From Elusimicrobia bacterium GWA2_62_23 (GTDB lineage: Bacteria; Elusimicrobiota; Elusimicrobia; Elusimicrobiales; UBA9959), in assembly GCA_001799635.1 (NCBI GenBank), contig MGTV01000029.1:1309-65308 (forward strand): a stretch of 64,000 nt of DNA, in the 5' to 3' direction. Positions 1 through 62,897 of this stretch are shown one piece after another. Under the pieces are notes generated by a model that did not search any database, was not told the origin of the DNA, and worked only from the letters and a program-made list of their open reading frames with translations. Every line of letters starts with the position of its first letter. Position 1 is the first letter of the stretch. The position numbers and the translations under genes are program-made.

Positions 1-90
1 AAATTTTTCTTTTTGCCGGGCAGGATATTCTAACAAAGAAATGCCAGGGAATCGGGGCAAACTTTTGAAGTAACTAGGAACTACATGGAT

Positions 91-160
91 TTGGGGTCAG
101 GTCTTTACTTTTGACCTTTAGCGAGAGCCGCCGGGGAAGCCCGGCGGTTTGTTTTTGGGG
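91..160 (+). repeat. Copy 1 of a ~70 nt intergenic repeat (GGGGTCAGGTCTTTACTTTTGACC module plus terminator hairpin)
   Basis: Near-identical to 981-1050 and partly to 585-612. Contains GGTCA-N12-TGACC, then the stem CCGCCGGG/CCCGGCGG (128-147, loop GAAG) and a T-tract (148-156). Confidence 0.7.
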
Positions 161-286
161 CGACACTACGCTGGCCGCCTGAAGAGCATAGCTCTTGATG
201 CGGCAGGGCCATAGGCCACTCGGGATGGCCTGCTAGGCTATATATACTGCGGGGGGATGTGGTCGGATATGATACATATAAAAGTA

Positions 287-315
287 TTGACAAATAGCCA
301 TATGCGGGGTAGACT
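287..315 (+). promoter_or_regulatory. Sigma70-like promoter (TTGACA-17 nt-TAGACT) for the 349-582 gene
   Basis: TTGACA at 287-292, exact 17-nt spacer, TAGACT at 310-315. GAGG at 341-344 precedes the ATG at 349. Confidence 0.5.
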
Positions 316-348
316 ATATGAAAGACGTGCGGAAAGGGGCGAGGTATT

Positions 349-582
349 ATGAAAAAGACAAAGGATGAAGATAAGCCGGTGGGGAAACTGACCCGGGTGG
401 ATGACTTTCTTCCGCCCCCGGGCGCGTTGGCCATGCCTGAGGACACCATAAAGGTGACCCTGTCTCTCAGCCGCTCCAGCGTGAACTTCTTCAAAGAGCA
501 GGCGCGCCGCAACCACACCAAGTACCAGCGCATGATACGCAGCCTGGTGGATACCTACACGGCCCATTACCTGCACCATTAG
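349..582 (+). CDS. Small ribbon-helix-helix/CopG-type antitoxin (BrnA-like), no adjacent toxin
   Basis: 77 aa. The LPPPGALAMPEDTIKVTLSLSRSSVNFFKEQARRNHTKYQRMIRSLVDTY pattern matches antitoxins of the BrnA/CopG class from memory. Has its own promoter and SD. Confidence 0.5.
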   Translation: MKKTKDEDKPVGKLTRVDDFLPPPGALAMPEDTIKVTLSLSRSSVNFFKEQARRNHTKYQRMIRSLVDTYTAHYLHH

Positions 583-584
583 TC

Positions 585-612
585 TTGGGGTCAGGTCTTT
601 ACTTTGACATTA
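585..612 (+). repeat. Copy 2 (5' module only) of the intergenic repeat
   Basis: CTTGGGGTCAGGTCTTTACTTTGAC matches the 5' half of copies 1 and 3. The terminator hairpin half is absent. Confidence 0.55.
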
Positions 613-674
613 TAAGAGAGAAGGTAATTCGTTAAACTGAAAGTCAGTTGGCGGTAATGCGTAAGGAGGGATGT

Positions 675-968
675 ATGCCACAAAACCATTTAGGCAGGAA
701 TGAGCCCTGCCACTGCGGCAGCGGCAAAAAATATAAGAATTGCCATTACTCCGAGGATAGGGGAAAACAGACGGAGGTGTTGAACACCACCGACAATGAG
801 CAGATCTCTCCAAGGCATAAGCAATTCCTCGGACTGCCCGCGCTGCCTCCGCAGTTTTCTGGTGCCGGTACCGCCCAGGGGATAAAGAAAGCCTATGCCC
901 TGTGGCTTGTGATATCGCTGTTCTCTTTGGCGGCGCTGCTGATCGTTCTTTTCATCTACAGAGGCTGA
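675..968 (+). CDS. SEC-C motif protein with a C-terminal transmembrane anchor
   Basis: CHCGSGKKYKNCH is the SecA C-terminal type metal-binding motif. Hydrophobic tail AYALWLVISLFSLAALLIVLFIY. AAGGAGG at 663-669 favours the ATG at 675 over upstream in-frame starts at 648 and 657. Confidence 0.6.
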   Translation: MPQNHLGRNEPCHCGSGKKYKNCHYSEDRGKQTEVLNTTDNEQISPRHKQFLGLPALPPQFSGAGTAQGIKKAYALWLVISLFSLAALLIVLFIYRG

Positions 969-980
969 CAGAACGCGGAT

Positions 981-1050
981 TAGGGGTCAGGTACTTATTT
1001 TGACCTTTAATGCGAGCCGCCGGGGAAGCCCGGCGGTTTTGTTTTTTGGG
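981..1050 (+). repeat. Copy 3 of the ~70 nt intergenic repeat, including an intrinsic terminator
   Basis: About 90 percent identical by eye to 91-160. Stem CCGCCGGG/CCCGGCGG at 1017-1036 followed by TTTTGTTTTTT. Confidence 0.7.
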
Positions 1051-1059
1051 GGGTGTTGG

Positions 1060-1186
1060 GGTCGGCCGGGGGGATGCCTCTGAGAACCAGTTGGGGAGGG
1101 GAGGCTCCGCCGCCGAAGGCGGTGGAGGGGAACCGCGCAACGGTTCCCTGCAGTCCTGGTTCGCGGAGGCATCCCCCCGGACGGCC
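1060..1186. other. Multi-stem structured element (candidate cis-regulatory RNA, sRNA or repeat)
   Basis: Perfect 15-bp long-range pairing CCGGGGGGATGCCTC (1066-1080) with GAGGCATCCCCCCGG (1166-1180), extendable to 1060/1186. Inner stem GAACCAG (1084-1090)/CTGGTTC (1156-1162). Hairpins at 1105-1127 and 1128-1148. Confidence 0.35.
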
Positions 1187-24649: not shown

Positions 24650-25489
24650 ATGCTGATAGTGGCGGGCTCTAAAGCGTACGATGAGGCCGACTGGCTGCTC
24701 TCCAACGGGGCGGCCGAGGTCTATTGCGGCGTGCCAGGCCTGCCCAACCACCGCGACGAGGACCAGTGCCTGAAGGACGACGGGGAGTTCGTGCGCATAG
24801 CGCGCATGGCCAAGGGCAAGGGGAAGCGGGCGCTGCTCGCCATCAACGAAGCCTGCTTCGAAGAGAACTACCCCGAAGTGGCCGCGCGGGTGAAGGCCAT
24901 CCTGAAGGCCTGCCGGGTGCCGGTCATCATCCGCGAACTGCCGCTGCTGCATTACCTGCGCAAGAGCGGCGTCAAAGCCGACTTCATCATAAGCAGCCTG
25001 TCGCTGGTCTTTAATTCCCGCGCGCTGGATTACTACAAGGACCTCGGCGTGAAGCGGGTGATATTGCCCTTCCACCTGATGCCCTACGAGGCGGGCCGGA
25101 TCATAGACAACCGCCTGGGGATGGAGACCGAGATCTTCTTCCACGCCGATTTCTGCTGCCCCAACATGGACCCGGCCTGCCGGCTCGACGGCTGGCTGAA
25201 GTCCTTCCAGGTTTGCCGCTTCCCGTACACCTGCGGCGGCGAGCCCTACCGCATGCCCGAGGCCAACGTGCCGCAGAAGCTGGACATGGTCTACGACGCT
25301 TTCCACGCCGGGATAAAGTACCTGAAGATCATCCGCGTCACCGATTTCGGCGACCAGCGGGAAGTGCTCAAAGAGGCCCGGGTGATGCTGGCCCTGCTGG
25401 AGAAAGGAGTTTCCCGGGAGGATTTTAGGAAGCTCGGCGAGAAACTGTATTTCTCCGTCTCGCGCCACGGCGCAAGGACCGGCCGATGA
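24650..25489 (+). CDS. UbiU-like peptidase-U32-family protein, paralog 1 (putative Fe-S subunit of an O2-independent hydroxylase)
   Basis: N-terminus resembles U32 (AGSKAYDEADWLLSNGAAEVYCG). Cys cluster FFHADFCCPNMDPACRL...CRFPYTC is a divergent form of the U32 signature. Clear paralog of 26190-27035. Confidence 0.55.
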   Translation: MLIVAGSKAYDEADWLLSNGAAEVYCGVPGLPNHRDEDQCLKDDGEFVRIARMAKGKGKRALLAINEACFEENYPEVAARVKAILKACRVPVIIRELPLLHYLRKSGVKADFIISSLSLVFNSRALDYYKDLGVKRVILPFHLMPYEAGRIIDNRLGMETEIFFHADFCCPNMDPACRLDGWLKSFQVCRFPYTCGGEPYRMPEANVPQKLDMVYDAFHAGIKYLKIIRVTDFGDQREVLKEARVMLALLEKGVSREDFRKLGEKLYFSVSRHGARTGR

Positions 25490-26193: not shown

Positions 26194-27035
26194 AGACCGT
26201 GGTGGGGGTGAAGACCTACGACGAGGCCGCCACTATGCTGCGCCTCGGGGCCGACGAACTTTACGGCGGACTCGCCGCGGTTCCCAATCACCGGTTGCCC
26301 GCCCAGTCTTTCCAGACCATGGACGAGATAAAGGCCGCCGTTAAACTGACCAGGAAGCTGGGGCGCCGTTTCTCGCTGCTGGTGAACCAGCCTTCCTTCG
26401 GGGCCAAGTCCCGTAAAACGCTGGCCGTGGCGCGGGAGCTGGACGAAGCGGGCCTTGGCGCCTGCATAGTGCGCGAAATACCCATGCTGGAAAGCCTCGC
26501 CGCCCTCGGCCTGAAGGCCCGGCTTACGGTCAGCAGTCTGGCGCTGTGTTTTAATCTGCCGGCCATGCGGCGCTATAAACAATTGGGAGCTTCGCGCGTG
26601 GTGCTGCCTTTCCAATTGCTCCCCGGTGAGGCGGCGCCGCTGATAAAGAACCGCTACGGCCTGGAGACCGAGGTCTTCTTTCACGCCGATTTCTGCTGCG
26701 CCAACATAGACCCCGCCTGCCGCCTCTGGAACCTGACGCACCGCGACCAGACCTGCCGCTTCTCCTACAAGGGCCCCGGCGGGCGCTGGCGCATGCCCGA
26801 GGCCAACGCCCGGGAGAAGATGCGGGCCGTGTACGGCTTCTACCACAGCGGGGCCCGGTACCTGAAGATCATCCGCATGAACGATTTCTCCGAGGAGCTG
26901 GAAGTCTTCAAATTCGCCCGGATCGTGGACAAGCTGCTCGCGAAAGGGCAGAGCGAAGAGGAATTCGCCCGGCTGGGGGAAAAACTTTATTTTACCGTGT
27001 CGCGGCACGCGAGGAGCGCATGGAAAAAGCGTTAG
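26190..27035 (+). CDS. UbiU-like peptidase-U32-family protein, paralog 2
   Basis: GTG start overlapping the upstream stop (GTGA). VFFHADFCCANIDPACRL...CRFSY; C-terminal half aligns residue-for-residue with 24650-25489 (RMPEAN, YLKIIR, LGEKLYF-VSRH). Confidence 0.55.
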   Translation: MKTVVGVKTYDEAATMLRLGADELYGGLAAVPNHRLPAQSFQTMDEIKAAVKLTRKLGRRFSLLVNQPSFGAKSRKTLAVARELDEAGLGACIVREIPMLESLAALGLKARLTVSSLALCFNLPAMRRYKQLGASRVVLPFQLLPGEAAPLIKNRYGLETEVFFHADFCCANIDPACRLWNLTHRDQTCRFSYKGPGGRWRMPEANAREKMRAVYGFYHSGARYLKIIRMNDFSEELEVFKFARIVDKLLAKGQSEEEFARLGEKLYFTVSRHARSAWKKR

Positions 27036-30323: not shown

Positions 30324-31813
30324 GAAAGCTGCTGCTGCCGCTGGCCCTGCTGCTCTCGGGCTGCGGCAATTATTATTCCGTAAGGGTTCCTTACAATCTG
30401 CCGGATATGCCCGGCGCCGCCTCGGCGCGTCCCGCCCTTTCCGCCGTCTACCTTAAAGTTTCCGTGCCAAAGTCCGGCGAAGATACCGGGCTGGGCGCCC
30501 TGGCCGGGGCGCTGACGAACCGCCAGGGCCCGGAGTTCAGGCCTTCAGAACTGGCCCGCAGGGCCGCCAGGGCGCTGAACGGTCCCGGCGCCAAAGTGTG
30601 CGCCTGGCGCGTGGACAAAACCGGCGGTGACGATCCCTTTCTCGGCCGGCTGGCTCCGTCGGGCCTGCTGGTAATAGAGGCGGCCGCGCCTTCCCTCTCT
30701 TCCAAAAAAGAAGAGCGCTCCAAGGTCTACTACAACAAGAAGAAGCAGTCTCAGACGGTGAAGAGCAAAGTCTGGGCCTACTCGGCCTCGCTCTACGCCA
30801 AAGTCTCCTTTTATTCCCTGCCGGAGATGCAGGAGCTTGACTCCTGGACGGACACCTTCTCTTTCGCCGAGGACCGCTTCGACAATTCCAAGGACGCCGC
30901 CGAGTGGTACGCCGAGAACGAGGGGAAACTCTACGCGGGGCTGGCCGAGCGGCTCAAGGGCCGCTACGCCGGGCGGCCCGTGGAGCGGTTCAGGCCGCTC
31001 TTCGCCGTGAAGAAAGACAAGGAATCCGAAGAGGCCCTTAAGCTGGCCAGAGAGAATAAGTGGGATGGGGCCGAAGAGATCTGGGGGCGCCGGGCCGGCG
31101 CGGCCGGCGGCTGGCGCGACCAGCTGGGCCTGGCGGTAGCCGCCGAACTGCGCAAGGACTACGCCGGAGCCGGGGCGCTTTACGCCCGCGCGCAGGCGGC
31201 CGCCGCCGGCGACAAGGCCGCCGGGGGCGTGCGCTGGGCCGAGATCTTCCGGGACCTGGAGATCTTCTCCTCCACCGCCGCGGCCGGCAGCTGCGGCCGG
31301 GACTGGTTCGGCGGGCGTACCGCGCTGCTGCCTTTCACCGACCAGACGACTTTCGTGGACGGGCCGCCGCTGGTGCGCCGCCTGGTCTACGAGCACCTCA
31401 AGGCCGCCGGCTACGACCTTTTGACGCTGGATGAAACTGACGAACTGCTGCGCCGCCGCGGCTTCTCGGACGGCGGCCAGCTGGCCGCGGCCAAGCCCGC
31501 CGACATCGCCGGCTGGCTGGGCGCGAAGCGCCTGATCTATTGCGATATCAGCGATTTCGGGGAGATCATGGCCGGGGTTTACAACCGGCGCATGGTGAAG
31601 GGTTCCGCGGTGGTCTGGGAAGCCGGTTCCGGCTCGGAACTGGCCTTCGAGGAAAGCGTGGTAAAGGTGAAGACCCCCAAGAACTTCGCATCGGGCCTGT
31701 TCAGCCAGCTCGCCAAGGGCCTGGCCGAGCGCATCAAGAACGCGCCGCTCGCCTACGAGAGCGGCCTCTTCGCCCGCCAGCTCACCGAAAACCTCCCCAA
31801 CCAAAGCAAATAA
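30320..31813 (+). CDS. Lipoprotein with a C-terminal DUF799/GNA1162-like domain
   Basis: Lipobox LALLLSGC. C-terminal LLPFTDQT...GYDLLTLDETDELL...GAKRLIYCDISDFG resembles DUF799 lipoproteins (from memory). Confidence 0.55.
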   Translation: MRKLLLPLALLLSGCGNYYSVRVPYNLPDMPGAASARPALSAVYLKVSVPKSGEDTGLGALAGALTNRQGPEFRPSELARRAARALNGPGAKVCAWRVDKTGGDDPFLGRLAPSGLLVIEAAAPSLSSKKEERSKVYYNKKKQSQTVKSKVWAYSASLYAKVSFYSLPEMQELDSWTDTFSFAEDRFDNSKDAAEWYAENEGKLYAGLAERLKGRYAGRPVERFRPLFAVKKDKESEEALKLARENKWDGAEEIWGRRAGAAGGWRDQLGLAVAAELRKDYAGAGALYARAQAAAAGDKAAGGVRWAEIFRDLEIFSSTAAAGSCGRDWFGGRTALLPFTDQTTFVDGPPLVRRLVYEHLKAAGYDLLTLDETDELLRRRGFSDGGQLAAAKPADIAGWLGAKRLIYCDISDFGEIMAGVYNRRMVKGSAVVWEAGSGSELAFEESVVKVKTPKNFASGLFSQLAKGLAERIKNAPLAYESGLFARQLTENLPNQSK

Positions 31814-31829
31814 GATCGATCGGCATGTT

Positions 31830-31858
31830 CCCCCTGCGAGCCGTTACGGCGCAGGGGG
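31830..31858 (+). terminator. GC hairpin after the lipoprotein gene (no clear U-tract)
   Basis: CCCCCTGCG-N11-CGCAGGGGG. Confidence 0.4.
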
Positions 31859-31870
31859 ATGTCCTTTCAT

Positions 31871-32041
31871 GCAGGCCGAATCATAGGAGCGGGTGGCGAG
31901 GGTGTGCCTTCCGAGGGATTTCCCGGAAGCCTGAGCTTGCGTAAGCGCGAAGGCTGAGGGATAAGCGGCGCGCACGGTGTGCGCGACCGCGTGCCCGAGG
32001 AAGGCATACCCTCGACAGGACCCGCGAACTTGCAGGCCTGC
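31871..32041 (+). repeat. Copy A of a 130-175 nt imperfect-palindrome intergenic repeat family
   Basis: Arms CGAGGGTGTGCCTTCC (31897-31912) and GGAAGGCATACCCTCG (31999-32014) pair over 16 bp. Shares conserved blocks with 39104-39233 (inverted) and 62721-62897. Confidence 0.75.
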
Positions 32042-32047
32042 CTACCC

Positions 32048-33328
32048 CTAATCCCTTTCGAAGACGAGCAGGGTTTCGGAGTGGGGGGTGTTGGGGTAGA
32101 AGTCGAAGGCGGCCGACCGGATTATCTTGTACTTCTCCATGAAGAAGGCGGCGTCGCGGCCCTGCGTGATGGGGTTGCAGGACAGGTAGATGATGCGCTT
32201 GGGCAGGATCTCCATGATGCGCTTGATGACCTTGTTATGCAGGCCCGCGCGCGGCGGGTCCAGCACCAGGATGTCGGTCCCGTCGAACAGGTCGTCCTTC
32301 ATCTTCTCGGAGAGCGAGCAGACCATGGAGAAGTTCTTGGCGCCGAGGTCCTTGGCGTTGAGCGCCGCGTACTTGGCCGAACTGTCCGAGGCCTCCACGG
32401 CCAGTACCTTGTCCGCGAGGTCGCGCAGGTGCAGGCCTATCACGCCCACGCCGGAATAGAGGTCCACCAGTTTGCCGCACTTGAATGCGGCGCCGCGGAT
32501 CTCCTTGAGCGCCTCGGCGAGCAGCTCCATGTTGTTCTGGAAGAAGCAGTCGAAGCCGTAATAGAATTTGTCGCCGAGGATCTCCTCGGTCACGAATTCC
32601 CGTCCCCAGGTCTTGAGTATTTCGTCCACCTGGCTGACCGAGCTGACGGGGTTGGAGTAGATGGCGAGGAAGCCGTCCAGCCCGGGCAGCAGCATGTCGG
32701 GCAGTTCGATGTCCCGGCGCTTCACGAACAGCGCCGCCACACGCGAGCCGGGTTTCTTGGCGTCGCGGATGATGAGCGTCTTGAGGTCGGCGGTGGAAAG
32801 CTTCAGGGAGTTGATGACGCCGAGGATCTTCAGGGCGGCGGCGTTGGCGGCCGGGCTGATGAGGGCGCAGCCTTCGGGCAGCAGGTATTTTTCACGGTAA
32901 TTGCCGCGCTTGTGGAAGGCGAAGGAGAGGGCGCCCGGCTCGCCGGTGAAACTGTACTCTATCTTGGTGCGGTAGCCGAAGATCTCTTTCGCGCCGTAGA
33001 ACTTGTCGAGCCTGATGGTCTCCTTGGTGGTCTGGTACAGCAGGTCCTCTATGAGGCCTTTCTTGGTCTCGCACTGGAACTCGTAGTCCATCACCTGCCA
33101 CGGCGAGCAGCTGAGGTAGTGGTCCTCCTTCGGGGCCACGCGGCGGGGGGAGGGCTTTACGATCTCCAGCAGCTCCGCCTCCGCGAAGTTCTTCTTCTCG
33201 AAAGTCACGCGGACCCTGGCGGTTTCCTCCGGCAGGACGCCGTAGCAGAATACCACCTTGCCCTCGCTTCTGCCGAGAGCTTTTCCTTCGCCTACAATTT
33301 TCTTGAATTCGAGCGTAATTTCGCGCAT
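32048..33328 (-). CDS. TRAM-domain class I SAM-dependent RNA (uracil-5) methyltransferase, RlmD/TrmA family
   Basis: N-terminal TRAM-like EGKALGRSEGKVVFCYGVLPEE. LVDLYSGVGVIGL SAM motif. C-terminal IIYLSCNP...DFYPNTPHSE. Confidence 0.8.
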   Translation of the reverse strand: MREITLEFKKIVGEGKALGRSEGKVVFCYGVLPEETARVRVTFEKKNFAEAELLEIVKPSPRRVAPKEDHYLSCSPWQVMDYEFQCETKKGLIEDLLYQTTKETIRLDKFYGAKEIFGYRTKIEYSFTGEPGALSFAFHKRGNYREKYLLPEGCALISPAANAAALKILGVINSLKLSTADLKTLIIRDAKKPGSRVAALFVKRRDIELPDMLLPGLDGFLAIYSNPVSSVSQVDEILKTWGREFVTEEILGDKFYYGFDCFFQNNMELLAEALKEIRGAAFKCGKLVDLYSGVGVIGLHLRDLADKVLAVEASDSSAKYAALNAKDLGAKNFSMVCSLSEKMKDDLFDGTDILVLDPPRAGLHNKVIKRIMEILPKRIIYLSCNPITQGRDAAFFMEKYKIIRSAAFDFYPNTPHSETLLVFERD

Positions 33329-39063: not shown

Positions 39064-39091
39064 AAAGCCGGCCTAACCAGCCGGCTTTTTT
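39064..39091 (+). terminator. Intrinsic terminator
   Basis: AAAGCCGGC-CTAACCA-GCCGGCTTTTTT. Confidence 0.8.
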
Positions 39092-39103
39092 ATTTATGGA
39101 TAC

Positions 39104-39233
39104 TAGGCGGGCGAGGGTATGCCTTCTCCGGGTACGCACGGCCACACCGTGGCCGTGCTCTCGCACTCGGGCTCGTCGCTTCGCAAGCCTCGCCCTCGTG
39201 AGGCCCCTCCGAAGGCACACCCTCGCCCGCCTA
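39104..39233 (-). repeat. Copy B (inverted orientation, shorter) of the palindromic intergenic repeat family
   Basis: Its reverse complement aligns with copies A and C (GGCGGGCGAGGGTGTGCCTTCGGAGGGGC...GAGGCTTGCGAAGCGACGAG...CACGGTGTG...GAAGGCATACCCTCGCCCGCC). Confidence 0.75.
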
Positions 39234-39956
39234 GGGCTCGCGGGCCAGGGTGAAAGCGGCAACCGACTTCGCGCCGGCTTTCTTCAGTTCGGCGGCCAGT
39301 GAGGCCAGCGTGGCCAGCGTGGTGGCCACGTCGTCTATCAGCAGCACGTTCCTGGCGCGCACCAGCTCCGGCTTCAGCACTTCGAACGCCCCTTCCATGT
39401 TCAACCTGCGCTCCGTCTTGGAGAGCGAGGTCTGGCTCGGCGTGTCGCGCCGGCGCCCCAGCGCCCCCTCGAGGCGGAAGAGGCCCGCCGCCGGGGCCAG
39501 CCCCGCGGCCAGCAGTTCGGCCTGGTTGAAGCCGCGCGAGCGCAGCTTGGCCGGGTGCAGCGGTACGGCGGCGCAGAAATTGTAGGTGGCCAGCTCCGGC
39601 GCGCGCCGCAGGCCGGCGGCCATGCCCGCCGCCAGCCAGCCGGCCAGATCTTCCCTGCCGCGGTACTTGAACGCGTGCAGCAGCGAGCGCAGCGGCGGGT
39701 TGAAGACGTAGGCCGAGCGGGCGAGGGCCAGGGCGCCGGCGGCGCGGCCCCGGCAGTCGGGGCAGTTGGCGCCGCCGCCGGAGAGCGGCAGGCCGCAGAC
39801 CCGGCAGGAGAGGGCCGGGACCGGCTCCAGGGCCGCGAAGCAGCCGGGACAGAGCGGGCCCTGGTGCAGGTAATGCAGGTCTTCGAGGCAGTGCAGGCAG
39901 GCGCGGGGCAACAGCGCGTTTAGCAGCCAGCGCCCGGCTTTTACTAGAGGCTTCAT
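39231..39956 (-). CDS. comF: ComF-family protein (PRTase-fold, competence-associated)
   Basis: N-terminal Cys pairs CLHC...CPGC...CRVC...CPDC. C-terminal PRTase motif VLLIDDVATTLATL. Confidence 0.8.
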   Translation of the reverse strand: MKPLVKAGRWLLNALLPRACLHCLEDLHYLHQGPLCPGCFAALEPVPALSCRVCGLPLSGGGANCPDCRGRAAGALALARSAYVFNPPLRSLLHAFKYRGREDLAGWLAAGMAAGLRRAPELATYNFCAAVPLHPAKLRSRGFNQAELLAAGLAPAAGLFRLEGALGRRRDTPSQTSLSKTERRLNMEGAFEVLKPELVRARNVLLIDDVATTLATLASLAAELKKAGAKSVAAFTLAREP

Positions 39957-50692: not shown

Positions 50693-50829
50693 TATACAGT
50701 CCAGGTCGGCGGGGCGGAGGCACGCGGGCCCTCTTCCGCCGCGCCCGCTTAGGCGAACGAGGGGAACATGCCGGCGACACTACGGTGTCGGGGTGGTCTG
50801 CTAGGCTATTGGGGGAGGCCGGAGGGCCC

Positions 50830-50858
50830 TTGACCGGAGGCTGCCGCTGATGTATACT
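50830..50858 (+). promoter_or_regulatory. Sigma70-like promoter (TTGACC-17 nt-TATACT) for mazEF
   Basis: TTGACC at 50830-50835, 17-nt spacer, TATACT at 50853-50858. AGGAGG at 50871-50876 before the ATG at 50882. Confidence 0.5.
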
Positions 50859-50881: not shown

Positions 50882-51124
50882 ATGACGACAGTGGTACAGA
50901 AATGGGGCAATAGCCTGGCTCTGCGCATCCCCAGCGCCTTCGCCAAGGACATACACCTGCACCAGGGGTCAACGGTGGAGGTGGCCATAGTGGAGGGGAA
51001 TATGGTGATAAAACCAAGGAAGAAGCGGAAACCGTCGCTGGCGCGCCTACTTAAGGGCGTAACCGCCCGGAACCTGCACGCCGAACAGGACTATGGCGAA
51101 CAGGCTGGCCGGGAGACCTGGTAA
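50882..51124 (+). CDS. mazE: AbrB/MazE-family antitoxin
   Basis: VQKWGNSLALRIPSAFAKDIHL SpoVT/AbrB fold signature. Confidence 0.8.
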   Translation: MTTVVQKWGNSLALRIPSAFAKDIHLHQGSTVEVAIVEGNMVIKPRKKRKPSLARLLKGVTARNLHAEQDYGEQAGRETW

Positions 51125-51125
51125 T

Positions 51126-51461
51126 ATGCCCTACGTCCCGGAGCGCGGAGACGTGGTCTGGCTCAGCTTCGCGCCCCAGGCCGGCCATGAACAGGCCGGG
51201 CACAGGCCGGCCCTGGTGCTGTCGCCCTCCGCCTACAATAAAAAAGTAGGCCTCGCGCTCTTCTGCCCCCTGACCACCCAGGTGAAAGGGTACCCCTTTG
51301 AAGTTTTGGTCCCTCCGGGTCTTAAAGCCGGCGGCGTAGTCCTCTCCGACCAGGTCCGCACCATGGACTGGCGCGCGAGAGGGGCCAAGCTCTGCTGCCG
51401 GATCCCGCAGGGCACCGTGTCCGAAGTCCTGGAAAAGCTCGGCGCCCTGATCGGGGAGTAA
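51126..51461 (+). CDS. mazF: MazF/PemK-family endoribonuclease toxin
   Basis: YVPERGDVVWLSFAPQAGHEQAGHRPALVLSP...CPLTTQVKGYPFEV...VVLSDQVRTMDW. Confidence 0.9.
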   Translation: MPYVPERGDVVWLSFAPQAGHEQAGHRPALVLSPSAYNKKVGLALFCPLTTQVKGYPFEVLVPPGLKAGGVVLSDQVRTMDWRARGAKLCCRIPQGTVSEVLEKLGALIGE

Positions 51462-61843: not shown

Positions 61844-62721
61844 AACTCAAAGGCGTTTTCACGGCTATCGTTACCCCTTTCAAGAGCGGCAAGCCGGACC
61901 TCGAGGCGCTCAAAAAAATAGTGAAGTTCCAGATAGAAGGCGGCGTGAGCGGCCTGGTGCCCTGCGGTTCCACCGGTGAGGCGGCTACGCTGTCGCCGGA
62001 AGAATACCTGGCCGTGATAAAGACCGTGGTGGCCGCGGCCAAGGGCAAAGTGCCCGTGGTCCCCGGGGTAGGCACGAATTCCACCGAAAAGTCGGTGGAG
62101 ATGGTGAAGAAGGTCTCCGCTCTCGGCGTGGACGGCCTGCTGGCCATAGTGCCCTACTACAACAAGCCCACGCAGGAAGGCATGACCGTTCATTTCTCCG
62201 AGCTGGCCAAGGCCACGCGCCTGCCGGTGATCCTCTACAATATCCCCGGCCGCACCGGTGTGAACATGCTGCCGGCCACGGCGCTGGGGCTGCGCGCTAA
62301 ATTCTCCAACATAGTCGGCATCAAGGAAGCCTCTGGCAGCCTCGACCAGGTGAGCGAGATCATAAACGGGGCCGATAAGGATTTTATCGTCATGAGCGGC
62401 GACGATTCGCTGACGCTGCCGATGATGTCGGTAGGCGCGAAGGGCGTAATCTCGGTGGCGGCCAACGTGGCGCCCGCCGAGACGGCCCGGATGTGCGAGT
62501 TGTTCCTGGACGGGGACATCTCCGGCGCGGCGGAGCTGCACCACCGGCTGTTCCCGCTGGTGAAGGCCCTGTTCTGCGAGACCAACCCTATACCTGTGAA
62601 GTACGCGGCGTCGCTCCTGGGCCTGTGCTCTTGCGAGCCGCGCCTGCCGCTCACGCCGCTCTCCCAGGCCCGCCGGGCCGGGCTGAAAGCGGAACTGATA
62701 AAAGCCGGCATCCTTAACTAG
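61837..62721 (+). CDS. dapA: 4-hydroxy-tetrahydrodipicolinate synthase
   Basis: GVFTAIVTPF, GSTGEAATLS, YNKPTQEG, ILYNIPGRTG, GIKEASG. The ATG at 61837 overlaps the dapF stop. Confidence 0.95.
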   Translation: MLKLKGVFTAIVTPFKSGKPDLEALKKIVKFQIEGGVSGLVPCGSTGEAATLSPEEYLAVIKTVVAAAKGKVPVVPGVGTNSTEKSVEMVKKVSALGVDGLLAIVPYYNKPTQEGMTVHFSELAKATRLPVILYNIPGRTGVNMLPATALGLRAKFSNIVGIKEASGSLDQVSEIINGADKDFIVMSGDDSLTLPMMSVGAKGVISVAANVAPAETARMCELFLDGDISGAAELHHRLFPLVKALFCETNPIPVKYAASLLGLCSCEPRLPLTPLSQARRAGLKAELIKAGILN

Positions 62722-62897
62722 CCTGTTGCCGAATAATAGGAGCGGGTGGCGACGGGTATGCCTTCGGAGGGGCGTCGCGGAGGCCGAGGCTTACGTAAGC
62801 GACGAGGCCGAGCGACGAGCGGCGAGCACGGTGTGCGAGACCGCGTACCCGTAGAAGGCATACCCGTCGACACTCGCGAACCTGCAGGCAACAGGCC
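62721..62897 (+). repeat. Copy C of the palindromic intergenic repeat family
   Basis: Outer stem GCCTGTTGCC (62721-62730)/GGCAACAGGC (62887-62896). Inner 16-bp arms CGACGGGTATGCCTTC/GAAGGCATACCCGTCG. Central GCTTACGTAAGC palindrome. Confidence 0.75.

Follow-up and report, generated by a model that had tools for sequence, protein, structure and literature searches.

What kind of element fills three of the convergent intergenic regions of Elusimicrobia bacterium GWA2_62_23, and what maintains it there? The question is raised by a 64 kb stretch of this genome, which is called the window in the following and to whose positions all coordinates refer. An earlier note, made from the letters alone, had pointed to three long imperfect palindromes in the window and had proposed dispersed repeats of the REP/BIME or MITE (miniature inverted-repeat transposable element) class, selected at or targeted to the ends of convergent genes. 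The analysis summarised here reveals that the three copies, designated A, B and C, belong to an undescribed family of hairpin repeats of 130-175 nt, termed T1, whose members are dispersed over the intergenic DNA of GC-rich Elusimicrobia genomes and have kept their fold unusually well. T1 and its siblings are probably best regarded as a non-autonomous, structured and mosaic intergenic repeat superfamily of the Elusimicrobiales, of which the fold of the sense strand is under selection. The origin of the window is borne out by its dapA product, which is 100% identical to that of GWA2_62_23.

The three copies are present where they had been located, and their coordinates could be refined (Table 1). 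For instance, an nhmmer profile built from A, B and C yields exactly three matches in the window (E 1e-30 to 1e-50), the next match having an E value of 0.16. With the filters switched off, a covariance model added a single weak sibling at 1056-1190 (25 bits). Whole T1 elements measure 132-176 nt. The conserved sequence blocks that had been quoted for the copies are visible in their alignment, except that copy A contains GAGCTTGCGTAAGCG and not GAGGCTT. Each copy sits between two convergent stop codons, and the Pfam domains of the neighbours agree with the gene pairs described before. Copy A fills the region between a gene for a GNA1162-like lipoprotein, which ends at 31813, and a tRNA_U5-meth_tr gene with its stop codon at 32048. 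Copy B lies between an Alpha-amylase GH13 gene and a ComF-like gene (DZR_2 and Pribosyltran domains), with the comF-like stop codon (39231-39233, within the terminal CTAG of B) on one side and a separate bidirectional terminator on the other. Copy C fills the region between dapA (DHDPS) and mtgA (Transgly, monofunctional transglycosylase), and its first base is the last base of the dapA stop codon. All three window copies are singletons, that is, no inverted sibling adjoins them.

Table 1 Features of the window described in the text (CM, covariance model; MFE, minimum free energy)
Feature	Position	Strand	Sequence or evidence
Copy A, long-form T1	31871-32041	+ (sense)	nhmmer E 2e-50; CM 114 bits
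Copy B, short-form T1	39103-39234	- (sense)	nhmmer E 1e-30; CM 140 bits
Copy C, long-form T1	62721-62896	+ (sense)	nhmmer E 5e-50; CM 115.5 bits
Core of copy A	31900-32011	+	Same helices, with compensatory changes, in the alignments of 40 and of 57 copies
Basal stem arms of copy A	31900-31911; 32000-32011	+	GGGTGTGCCTTC; GAAGGCATACCC; predicted fold, GGG/CCC helix next
Hairpin H1 of copy A	~31929-31954	+	GCTTGCGTAAGC
Hairpin H2 of copy A	~31965-31990	+	GCACGGTGTGC, loop GGT
Long-form 5' extension of copy A	31871-31899	+	GCAGGCC-GAATCATAGGA-GCGGGTGGCGA
3' partner of the extension	32012-32041	+	TCGACAGGACCCGC-GAACTTGCA-GGCCTGC; pairs with 31871-31899
Sibling element T3	1060-1186	+	Inverted repeat I8; MFE -97.6 kcal/mol, z -7.4; T1 CM 25 bits, E 5e-4
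Small separate hairpin	31830-31858	+	CCCCCTGCG-AGCCGTTACGG-CGCAGGGGG; between upstream gene and copy A; read from the sequence
Canonical bidirectional intrinsic terminator	39064-39088	both	Adjoins copy B, not part of the repeat; conserved in L058, where the site is empty

Copies A, B and C fold alike, with MFE values of -106.2 kcal/mol (z -9.1), -95.4 kcal/mol (z -9.5) and -109.5 kcal/mol (z -9.1), respectively, the z scores being relative to dinucleotide shuffles; the antisense strand of copy A reaches -91.0 kcal/mol. The common fold is a three-way junction, in which a long closing helix with GGGTRTGCCTTC/GAAGGCATACCC is followed by a 3-bp GGG/CCC helix and by two small hairpins with conserved loops, H1 (GCTT-GCGT-AAGC) and H2 (CAC-GGT-GTG). 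The T1 unit consists of a core of about 110 nt that is closed by 10-35 additional base pairs. The arm pairing of about 16 bp noticed before is reached or exceeded in all three copies: A has a basal stem of about 16 bp plus outer helices, B has a perfect closing helix of 24 bp (CTAGGCGGGCGAGGGTGTGCCTTC) and C pairs over 16+7+10 bp. The long form, which is common to copies A and C and to six of the related loci with which the window was compared (L012, L015, L024, L033, L034 and L035; L numbers denote such loci), has an extra helix and an internal loop of the conserved sequence GAATAAYAGGA / GAACCTGCAG. Its outermost helix varies in sequence and remains paired: copy C has GCCTGTTGCC/GGCAACAGGC at the position of GCAGGCC/GGCCTGC in copy A. 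Generally, the 10-12 bp beyond the basal arms vary freely between copies with complementarity being kept. Insertion of T1 into pre-existing short palindromes was also considered; no empty GCCGGYGA...TCRCCGGC hairpin was found in the window and 43 loci, which indicates that the outer helix belongs to the element and not to its target.

The fold is supported by covariation. RNAalifold predicted 37 base pairs for 40 T1 copies, of which 18 show double compensatory changes. In an alignment of 57 copies, which also includes the sibling family T2 described below, 97.9% of the cells are paired, and shifting the 3' partners by 1-3 columns lowers this value to 38-46%. Moreover, both sides have changed in 32 of the 37 pairs, and the observed values were reached by none of 500 column shuffles. 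The 3-bp GGG/CCC helix of T1 is replaced by AAA/UUU in T2. Compensatory variation of the basal stem is also seen in copies found by routes other than the pattern scan (L004:4803-4939, L042 and L055), for instance GGGTAAGCC/GGCTTACCC in L042. The loops and junctions are more conserved than the stems.

The covariation is strand-specific. Among the non-canonical pairs, G-U or U-G occurs 93 times and A-C or C-A only 11 times. When the two strands of each copy are compared, 56 of the 57 copies fold more stably as the sense strand (mean -87.1 vs -76.9 kcal/mol). A constraint on a duplex or a cruciform would be symmetric with respect to the strands; the G-U bias and the asymmetry in stability therefore indicate that the selected species is a single strand, which is either RNA or one defined DNA strand. 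Together, the covariation and the G-U bias show that the single-stranded fold of the T1 sense strand is maintained by selection. T1 could also act as double-stranded DNA, for instance as a cruciform-prone palindrome that is bound by a nucleoid, gyrase or IHF-like protein, as has been reported for BIMEs, or as a recombination site, with the compensatory changes resulting from templated repair within the palindrome. The long and near-perfect inverted repeats would suit this explanation, the inversions of the interior observed when orthologous sites are compared could have arisen by recombination between the arms, and the orientation of the elements is random relative to transcription. However, a symmetric constraint predicts neither that G-T is tolerated about eight times as often as A-C nor that the same strand is the more stable one in virtually every copy, and the most conserved part of the element, consisting of the interior hairpins and the junction, is not palindromic. 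We consider action as double-stranded DNA very unlikely.

The same observations would also be expected if the copies were genes for a non-coding RNA, that is, for a trans-acting or protein-binding RNA that is encoded in several copies, is about 110-170 nt long and contains a three-way junction, the turnover reflecting the ordinary gain and loss of members of a gene family. Indeed, the covariation is on par with that of curated RNA families, the better conservation of loops and junctions over stems fits an RNA gene, and so do the strand-specific G-U bias and the advantage in stability of the sense strand. Moreover, the element at site C persists in L042, in which DapA is 86% identical, with many compensatory changes.

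Copies in relatives, on which the earlier note had made the repeat interpretation depend, were indeed found by a genome scan. An exact-pattern scan, covering one genome per species and requiring both basal arms, returned 39 loci, 36 of which are located in metagenome-assembled genomes (MAGs) of Elusimicrobia/Elusimicrobiales from at least 14 genomes; one genome has nine copies and another one six. The covariance model built from 40 T1 copies recovers all of them with scores of 105-154 bits. It also uncovered about 20 full-length matches with lower scores (53-80 bits), which lie beside T1 in the opposite orientation and represent the sibling family T2. T2 has the two inner hairpins of T1 and differs from it in the sequences of the junction and the closing helix. 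A further sibling, T3, has the architecture of T1, namely a long closing helix (GGGGGGATGCCTC/GAGGCATCCCCCC) and two hairpins, one of which is the conserved GGAACCGCGCAACGGTTCC; its copy in the window precedes a DUF218 gene. Relatives of T3 occur in L040, L025, L011 and L073, mostly inverted beside a T1. In about 20 related loci, T2 or T3 is inverted on the 5' side of T1, with a spacing of 30-80 nt for T2, and in some genomes a further long-range helix encloses the doublet, resulting in nested structures of about 400 nt. T1, T2 and T3 together make up the superfamily, and in many genomes T1 faces an inverted T2 or T3 head-to-head, forming BIME/REPIN-like doublets. The earlier note had mentioned neither the junction fold and its strand-specific covariation nor the siblings with their inverted doublets, including the T3 of the window. 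A presumed separate REP module with a GTAG tag (GCGGTAGGCCGCC) is in fact the outer stem that T2 has in some genomes, and the window does not contain it.

Two sequences from other bacteria were rejected as family members. A hairpin of 150 nt from gut Coprococcus (L021, 1715-1865; also L032 and L059-L079 except L073) is single-copy, folds with a z score of -9.3 and has GGGTATGCCTTCGCAGGGGC...GAGAAGGCATACCC, 20 nt of the basal region, in common with T1. Its interior differs from that of T1, its outer stem is AT-rich and complementary, and it has no Rfam match. A metagenome scan yielded one single-copy locus with identical flanks and the same gene downstream, which we take to be a glycerol kinase gene from its N-terminus. 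The Coprococcus hairpin may be a leader RNA, and its likeness to T1 may be a coincidence or a very distant relation rather than family membership. The second sequence, from a Paracoccaceae MAG (L010, 4764-4885), matches the pattern only; it is an unrelated perfect palindrome of 18 bp (GAGGGTGTGCCTTCAGGC) around tandem repeats of 16-17 nt.

The comparison of orthologous intergenic regions revealed that T1 elements come and go. At site C, a relative with a 93% identical DapA (L041) has an intergenic region of 23 nt without the element, a 97% strain (L040) contains a long-form T1 remnant in the opposite orientation that is fused to T3, and L042 has kept T1 in the same orientation. At site A, the long form lies in the opposite orientation in a 92% relative (L055), and in an 89% relative (L056) the neighbouring gene is a different one and the element is absent. 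At site B, the intergenic region of L058, an 83% relative in which the ComF C-terminus is the same, is 65 nt long and contains the bidirectional terminator only. Moreover, L029 differs from its orthologous loci L013 and L018 by the inversion of an entire T2-T1 doublet, and chimeric elements or arms occur in L005 and L073. In the genome JAMPXK01, the copies at sites A and C have in common an H2 variant and an insertion of 23 nt, neither of which occurs in copies A and C of the window. Copies from the same genome are more alike than copies at orthologous positions, and the mean identity of T1 copies is 0.82 within genomes vs 0.74 between genomes. Polymorphism is seen only at protein identities of 83-97%; strains with identical flanking proteins have the same intergenic length. 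Contigs of two independent assemblies, L052 (MGUF01000117.1) and L054, end exactly at element A or the adjoining stop codon, which suggests that the repeats break metagenome assemblies of these organisms. The turnover, inversions, chimeras and within-genome homogenisation show that T1 elements evidently spread or get exchanged within genomes, and this pattern is the signature of a replicating and/or gene-converting repeat family. The REP/BIME/MITE-like class put forward in the earlier note is supported by the copies in relatives and by their turnover, orthologous regions of relatives differing in the presence of the element.

These results also bear on the RNA genes considered above, for which the empty orthologous sites of close relatives and the nested, chimeric and inverted arrangements are difficult to accommodate. 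In addition, copies directly adjoin stop codons or overlap them, the flanks of A and C are devoid of promoter-like and terminator-like signals, the sequences just beyond the closing helix are not conserved, and Rfam does not contain a match. Taken together, it is rather unlikely that T1 represents a family of RNA genes, and we prefer the structured repeat superfamily.

The location of all three window copies raises the question of whether T1 serves the ends of convergent genes. Only 6 of the 50 gene junctions in the window are convergent, and the presence of all three copies at such junctions corresponds to a naive p value of about 0.002. Based on this, T1 copies could be bidirectional terminators or mRNA-stabilising hairpins whose selection is specific to the ends of convergent genes. 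At A and C, no other strong hairpin lies between the two genes, the folds of both strands are very stable, and the 3' end of at least one gene faces the element in 31 of 36 family contexts. However, the preference for convergent genes does not extend to the family: according to gene calls for the relatives that rely on heuristics based on the GC content at third codon positions (GC3), 6 of 33 element-bearing junctions are convergent, 22 are tandem and 5 are divergent, i.e. promoter regions, and the convergent share does not differ significantly from the background of 13% (Fisher p 0.39). The selection at, or targeting to, convergent gene ends that the earlier note had assumed is thus not borne out family-wide. 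A classical bidirectional terminator is also contradicted by the sequences, because A and C lack a U/T tract after the stem on both strands. Indeed, neither a terminator-like site, that is, a GC-rich stem-loop followed by a U/T tract on either strand, nor a promoter-like site was found at A or C, and the sole terminator-like site near B is the separate canonical hairpin adjoining it, which is itself present at the empty orthologous site. Moreover, the same sites in close relatives are devoid of the element. Hairpins selected specifically at convergent gene ends are therefore unlikely.

A more general role of T1 in transcript termination or stabilisation is plausible when the predicted folds are considered. 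The folded species of the structured repeats would be a transcript of the intergenic region, with the likely consequence that each copy in the window puts a very stable RNA hairpin (-90 to -110 kcal/mol) at the 3' ends of two convergent genes. Located in 3' untranslated regions or intergenic transcripts, such a hairpin could plausibly block exonucleases or read-through or be a target of RNase III, as is known for REP, ERIC and Correia elements, rather than serve as a classical intrinsic terminator. Alternatively, the folded species would be a single-stranded DNA intermediate of transposition.

How the repeats may be mobilised was approached by searching for a partner and for marks of insertion. 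Pfam domains of the neighbours and clustering of neighbouring proteins agree with the previous observation that no transposase is encoded nearby; no protein family recurs next to the elements across the 39 loci, and the flanking genes are housekeeping genes. Neither solo arms nor a longer autonomous element or insertion sequence with matching ends was found in 436 kb. As stated before, there is no convincing target-site duplication: copy B is flanked by CTAG...CTAG (or TA) and the copy in L025 by TA...TA, no direct repeat flanks A, C and most other copies, and the empty sites are too diverged for reconstructing the target. A conserved open reading frame (ORF) was not detected in T1 copies on inspection, and indels shift the frame between copies. 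Coding of a small peptide was rejected as well, since the only short frame, from the AGGAG...GTG region of copy A, ends after 13 codons and is broken by indels. Mobilisation would probably occur in trans, either by a transposase or by recombination and gene conversion between copies.

Several points weigh against the structured, selected and mobile repeat superfamily. As no transposase, target-site duplication or conserved terminal repeat could be identified, transposition as such is only a candidate process, and gene conversion together with deletion could account for much of the turnover. The orientation of the elements is random with respect to the flanking genes, the coding strand (24 vs 16) and the GC skew (17 vs 23), which fits poorly with a strictly orientation-dependent role of an RNA in cis. 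Furthermore, the pair counts come from related sequences and the 57-copy alignment (A7) was fitted to the model, and the invariance of the basal stem is in part an artefact of the search, because the genome scan required both basal arms. A bolder idea, which we rate as improbable, is that T1, T2 and T3 are functional mobile structured RNAs and not passive DNA repeats, the conserved junction and its invariant loops being recognised, as RNA or as single-stranded nucleic acid, by a dedicated partner. Such a partner could be a reverse transcriptase, an HUH enzyme, a nuclease or an RNA-binding protein, and the elements would either spread via this single-stranded intermediate or themselves act in trans. 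Mobile RNAs would jointly account for the strand-specific covariation, the orientation that is independent of the neighbours and the combination of conserved loops with variable stems.

Does the T1 superfamily correspond to a known type of repeat? The previous statement that the sequence does not resemble a known repeat family is supported by Rfam, plasmid and viral collections and the literature. At the gathering score, Rfam 15 gave no match in the window and none on the elements in seven related loci; at E values of up to 10 only noise was obtained (MIR1437, 13.6 bits), and nothing relevant at the Coprococcus locus. A plasmid or phage origin was dismissed, as there was no blastn match in PLSDB and no pattern match in viral contigs. 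In the literature, no paper was found in which REP, MITE or structured RNA motifs are connected with Elusimicrobia, and matches to the arm sequences were limited to unrelated primers.

Among the known repeats, the proteobacterial REP/BIME/REPIN sequences, which are mobilised by RAYT Y1 transposases, come close to T1. Both are extragenic, GC-rich, multi-copy hairpin repeats that occur singly or as inverted doublets and mosaics, keep the complementarity of their stems and lie at gene 3' ends, where hairpins can stabilise mRNA, as is established for the REPs of E. coli. In both, copies can be retained at orthologous sites, although within genomes they are also gained, lost and homogenised. The inverted doublets that characterise REPINs and BIMEs were found for T1 in about 20 related loci. 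However, the T1 unit is a multi-branched structure of 110-175 nt with a three-way junction, whereas a REP is a simple imperfect palindrome of about 20-40 nt; no RAYT gene was seen in the sequence examined, and the host phylum is a different one. According to PMC3733652, one end of REPs and REPINs has a conserved tetranucleotide, GTAG or CGTC. T1 lacks this tag: the 5' ends of about 40 copies read NNAGG (GCAG, GGAG, CTAG, ATAG and others), and GTAG is present at the 5' boundary only in L013, L018 and L025. T1 resembles MITEs in being small, non-coding and multi-copy (at least nine copies in one MAG) and in its insertion polymorphism, but the outer 10-12 bp of the T1 arms differ between copies in a compensatory manner, whereas the terminal repeats of MITEs are conserved. 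As T1 differs from REP/REPIN in unit size and in lacking the GTAG/CGTC tag, and from MITEs in its terminal repeats, we do not place it in any named family.

Other intergenic repeats show further likenesses. Correia/NEMIS elements of Neisseria and other MITEs are, like T1, 100-160 nt long with inverted ends, form long RNA hairpins, exist in long and short forms, lie near genes and are associated with assembly breaks. Correia hairpins inside mRNAs are substrates of RNase III, and the perfect 24-bp helix of copy B, as judged from its predicted pairing, could plausibly be one as well. In contrast to T1, the terminal inverted repeats of Correia elements are conserved, and insertion duplicates a TA target; the outer arms of T1 covary, and a flanking CTAG or TA is seen among the window copies only at B. 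RIME of Rhizobium and the small non-coding repeats of Deinococcus are lineage-restricted mosaic intergenic elements of about 100-200 nt with palindromic modules, resembling T1 in architecture and being unrelated in sequence; we know of no comparable analysis of covariation and strand bias for them. ERIC/IRU repeats lie in transcribed intergenic regions and are known only from Enterobacteriaceae and Vibrio. To our knowledge there is no apparent sequence similarity between ERIC and T1. Like T1, ERIC sequences are without coding capacity or a known transposase; unlike them, T1 has conserved internal hairpins, siblings sharing its modules and a much stronger documented covariation. The ERIC/IRU (about 127 bp) and related enterobacterial RU repeats (PMC2759123) are intergenic imperfect palindromes of more than 100 nt with variable presence at orthologous sites and with size variants due to indels, as is T1. 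In its behaviour T1 matches the class formed by REP/BIME/REPIN, ERIC, Correia and RIME, and it is a new family within it, ERIC and Correia apparently differing from T1 in consensus sequence and host range.

The neighbourhood of the repeats provided some further observations. The small hairpin between the upstream gene and copy A lies outside the profile and covariance model matches, lacks a T tract and is not part of the repeat; it may be the native 3'-end hairpin of the upstream gene. At the beginning of the window (86-1045), there are three copies of a motif of about 30 nt (GGGGTCAGGTCTTTACTTTTGACC), located near 94, 587 and 983, and two terminator-like repeats of 48 nt (109-156 and 998-1045) are 90% identical. 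The motif and the terminator-like repeats bracket the ORFs 349-582 (no Pfam match) and 675-968 (SEC-C motif), and the region looks like a small cassette array. The segments 160-245 and 50780-50830 have GCGACACTACG ... CTGCTAGGCTAT in common, which is located upstream of the small-ORF region at the start of the window and of a PemK/MazF toxin gene (51093-51461). In the orthologous intergenic region of a close relative (L017), a T1+T2 doublet is present instead. A direct repeat of 133 nt (25054-25186 and 26594-26726; 77% identity, 1540 nt apart) lies in neighbouring ORFs of the + strand and probably reflects a pair of paralogous tandem genes. Finally, a purine riboswitch aptamer of the 2dG-II type, matching Rfam RF03165 with 73 bits and unrelated to the repeats, is present in an Elusimicrobiales MAG (L039, 2619-2689).

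The T1 superfamily adds structure-supported repeats to a phylum that is known almost only from metagenome bins, in which they break assemblies and inflate intergenic regions. The quality and strand specificity of the covariation and the modular siblings make it a good candidate for a curated family. Moreover, the family is a natural data set for studying how hairpin repeats are maintained, because the same site can be found empty, occupied, inverted or rearranged at 86-97% identity, the fold being kept by strand-specific compensation. If the fold is read as RNA, many housekeeping transcripts of these organisms would have their 3' ends shaped by the elements; if it is read as single-stranded DNA, it would point to a mobilising enzyme.

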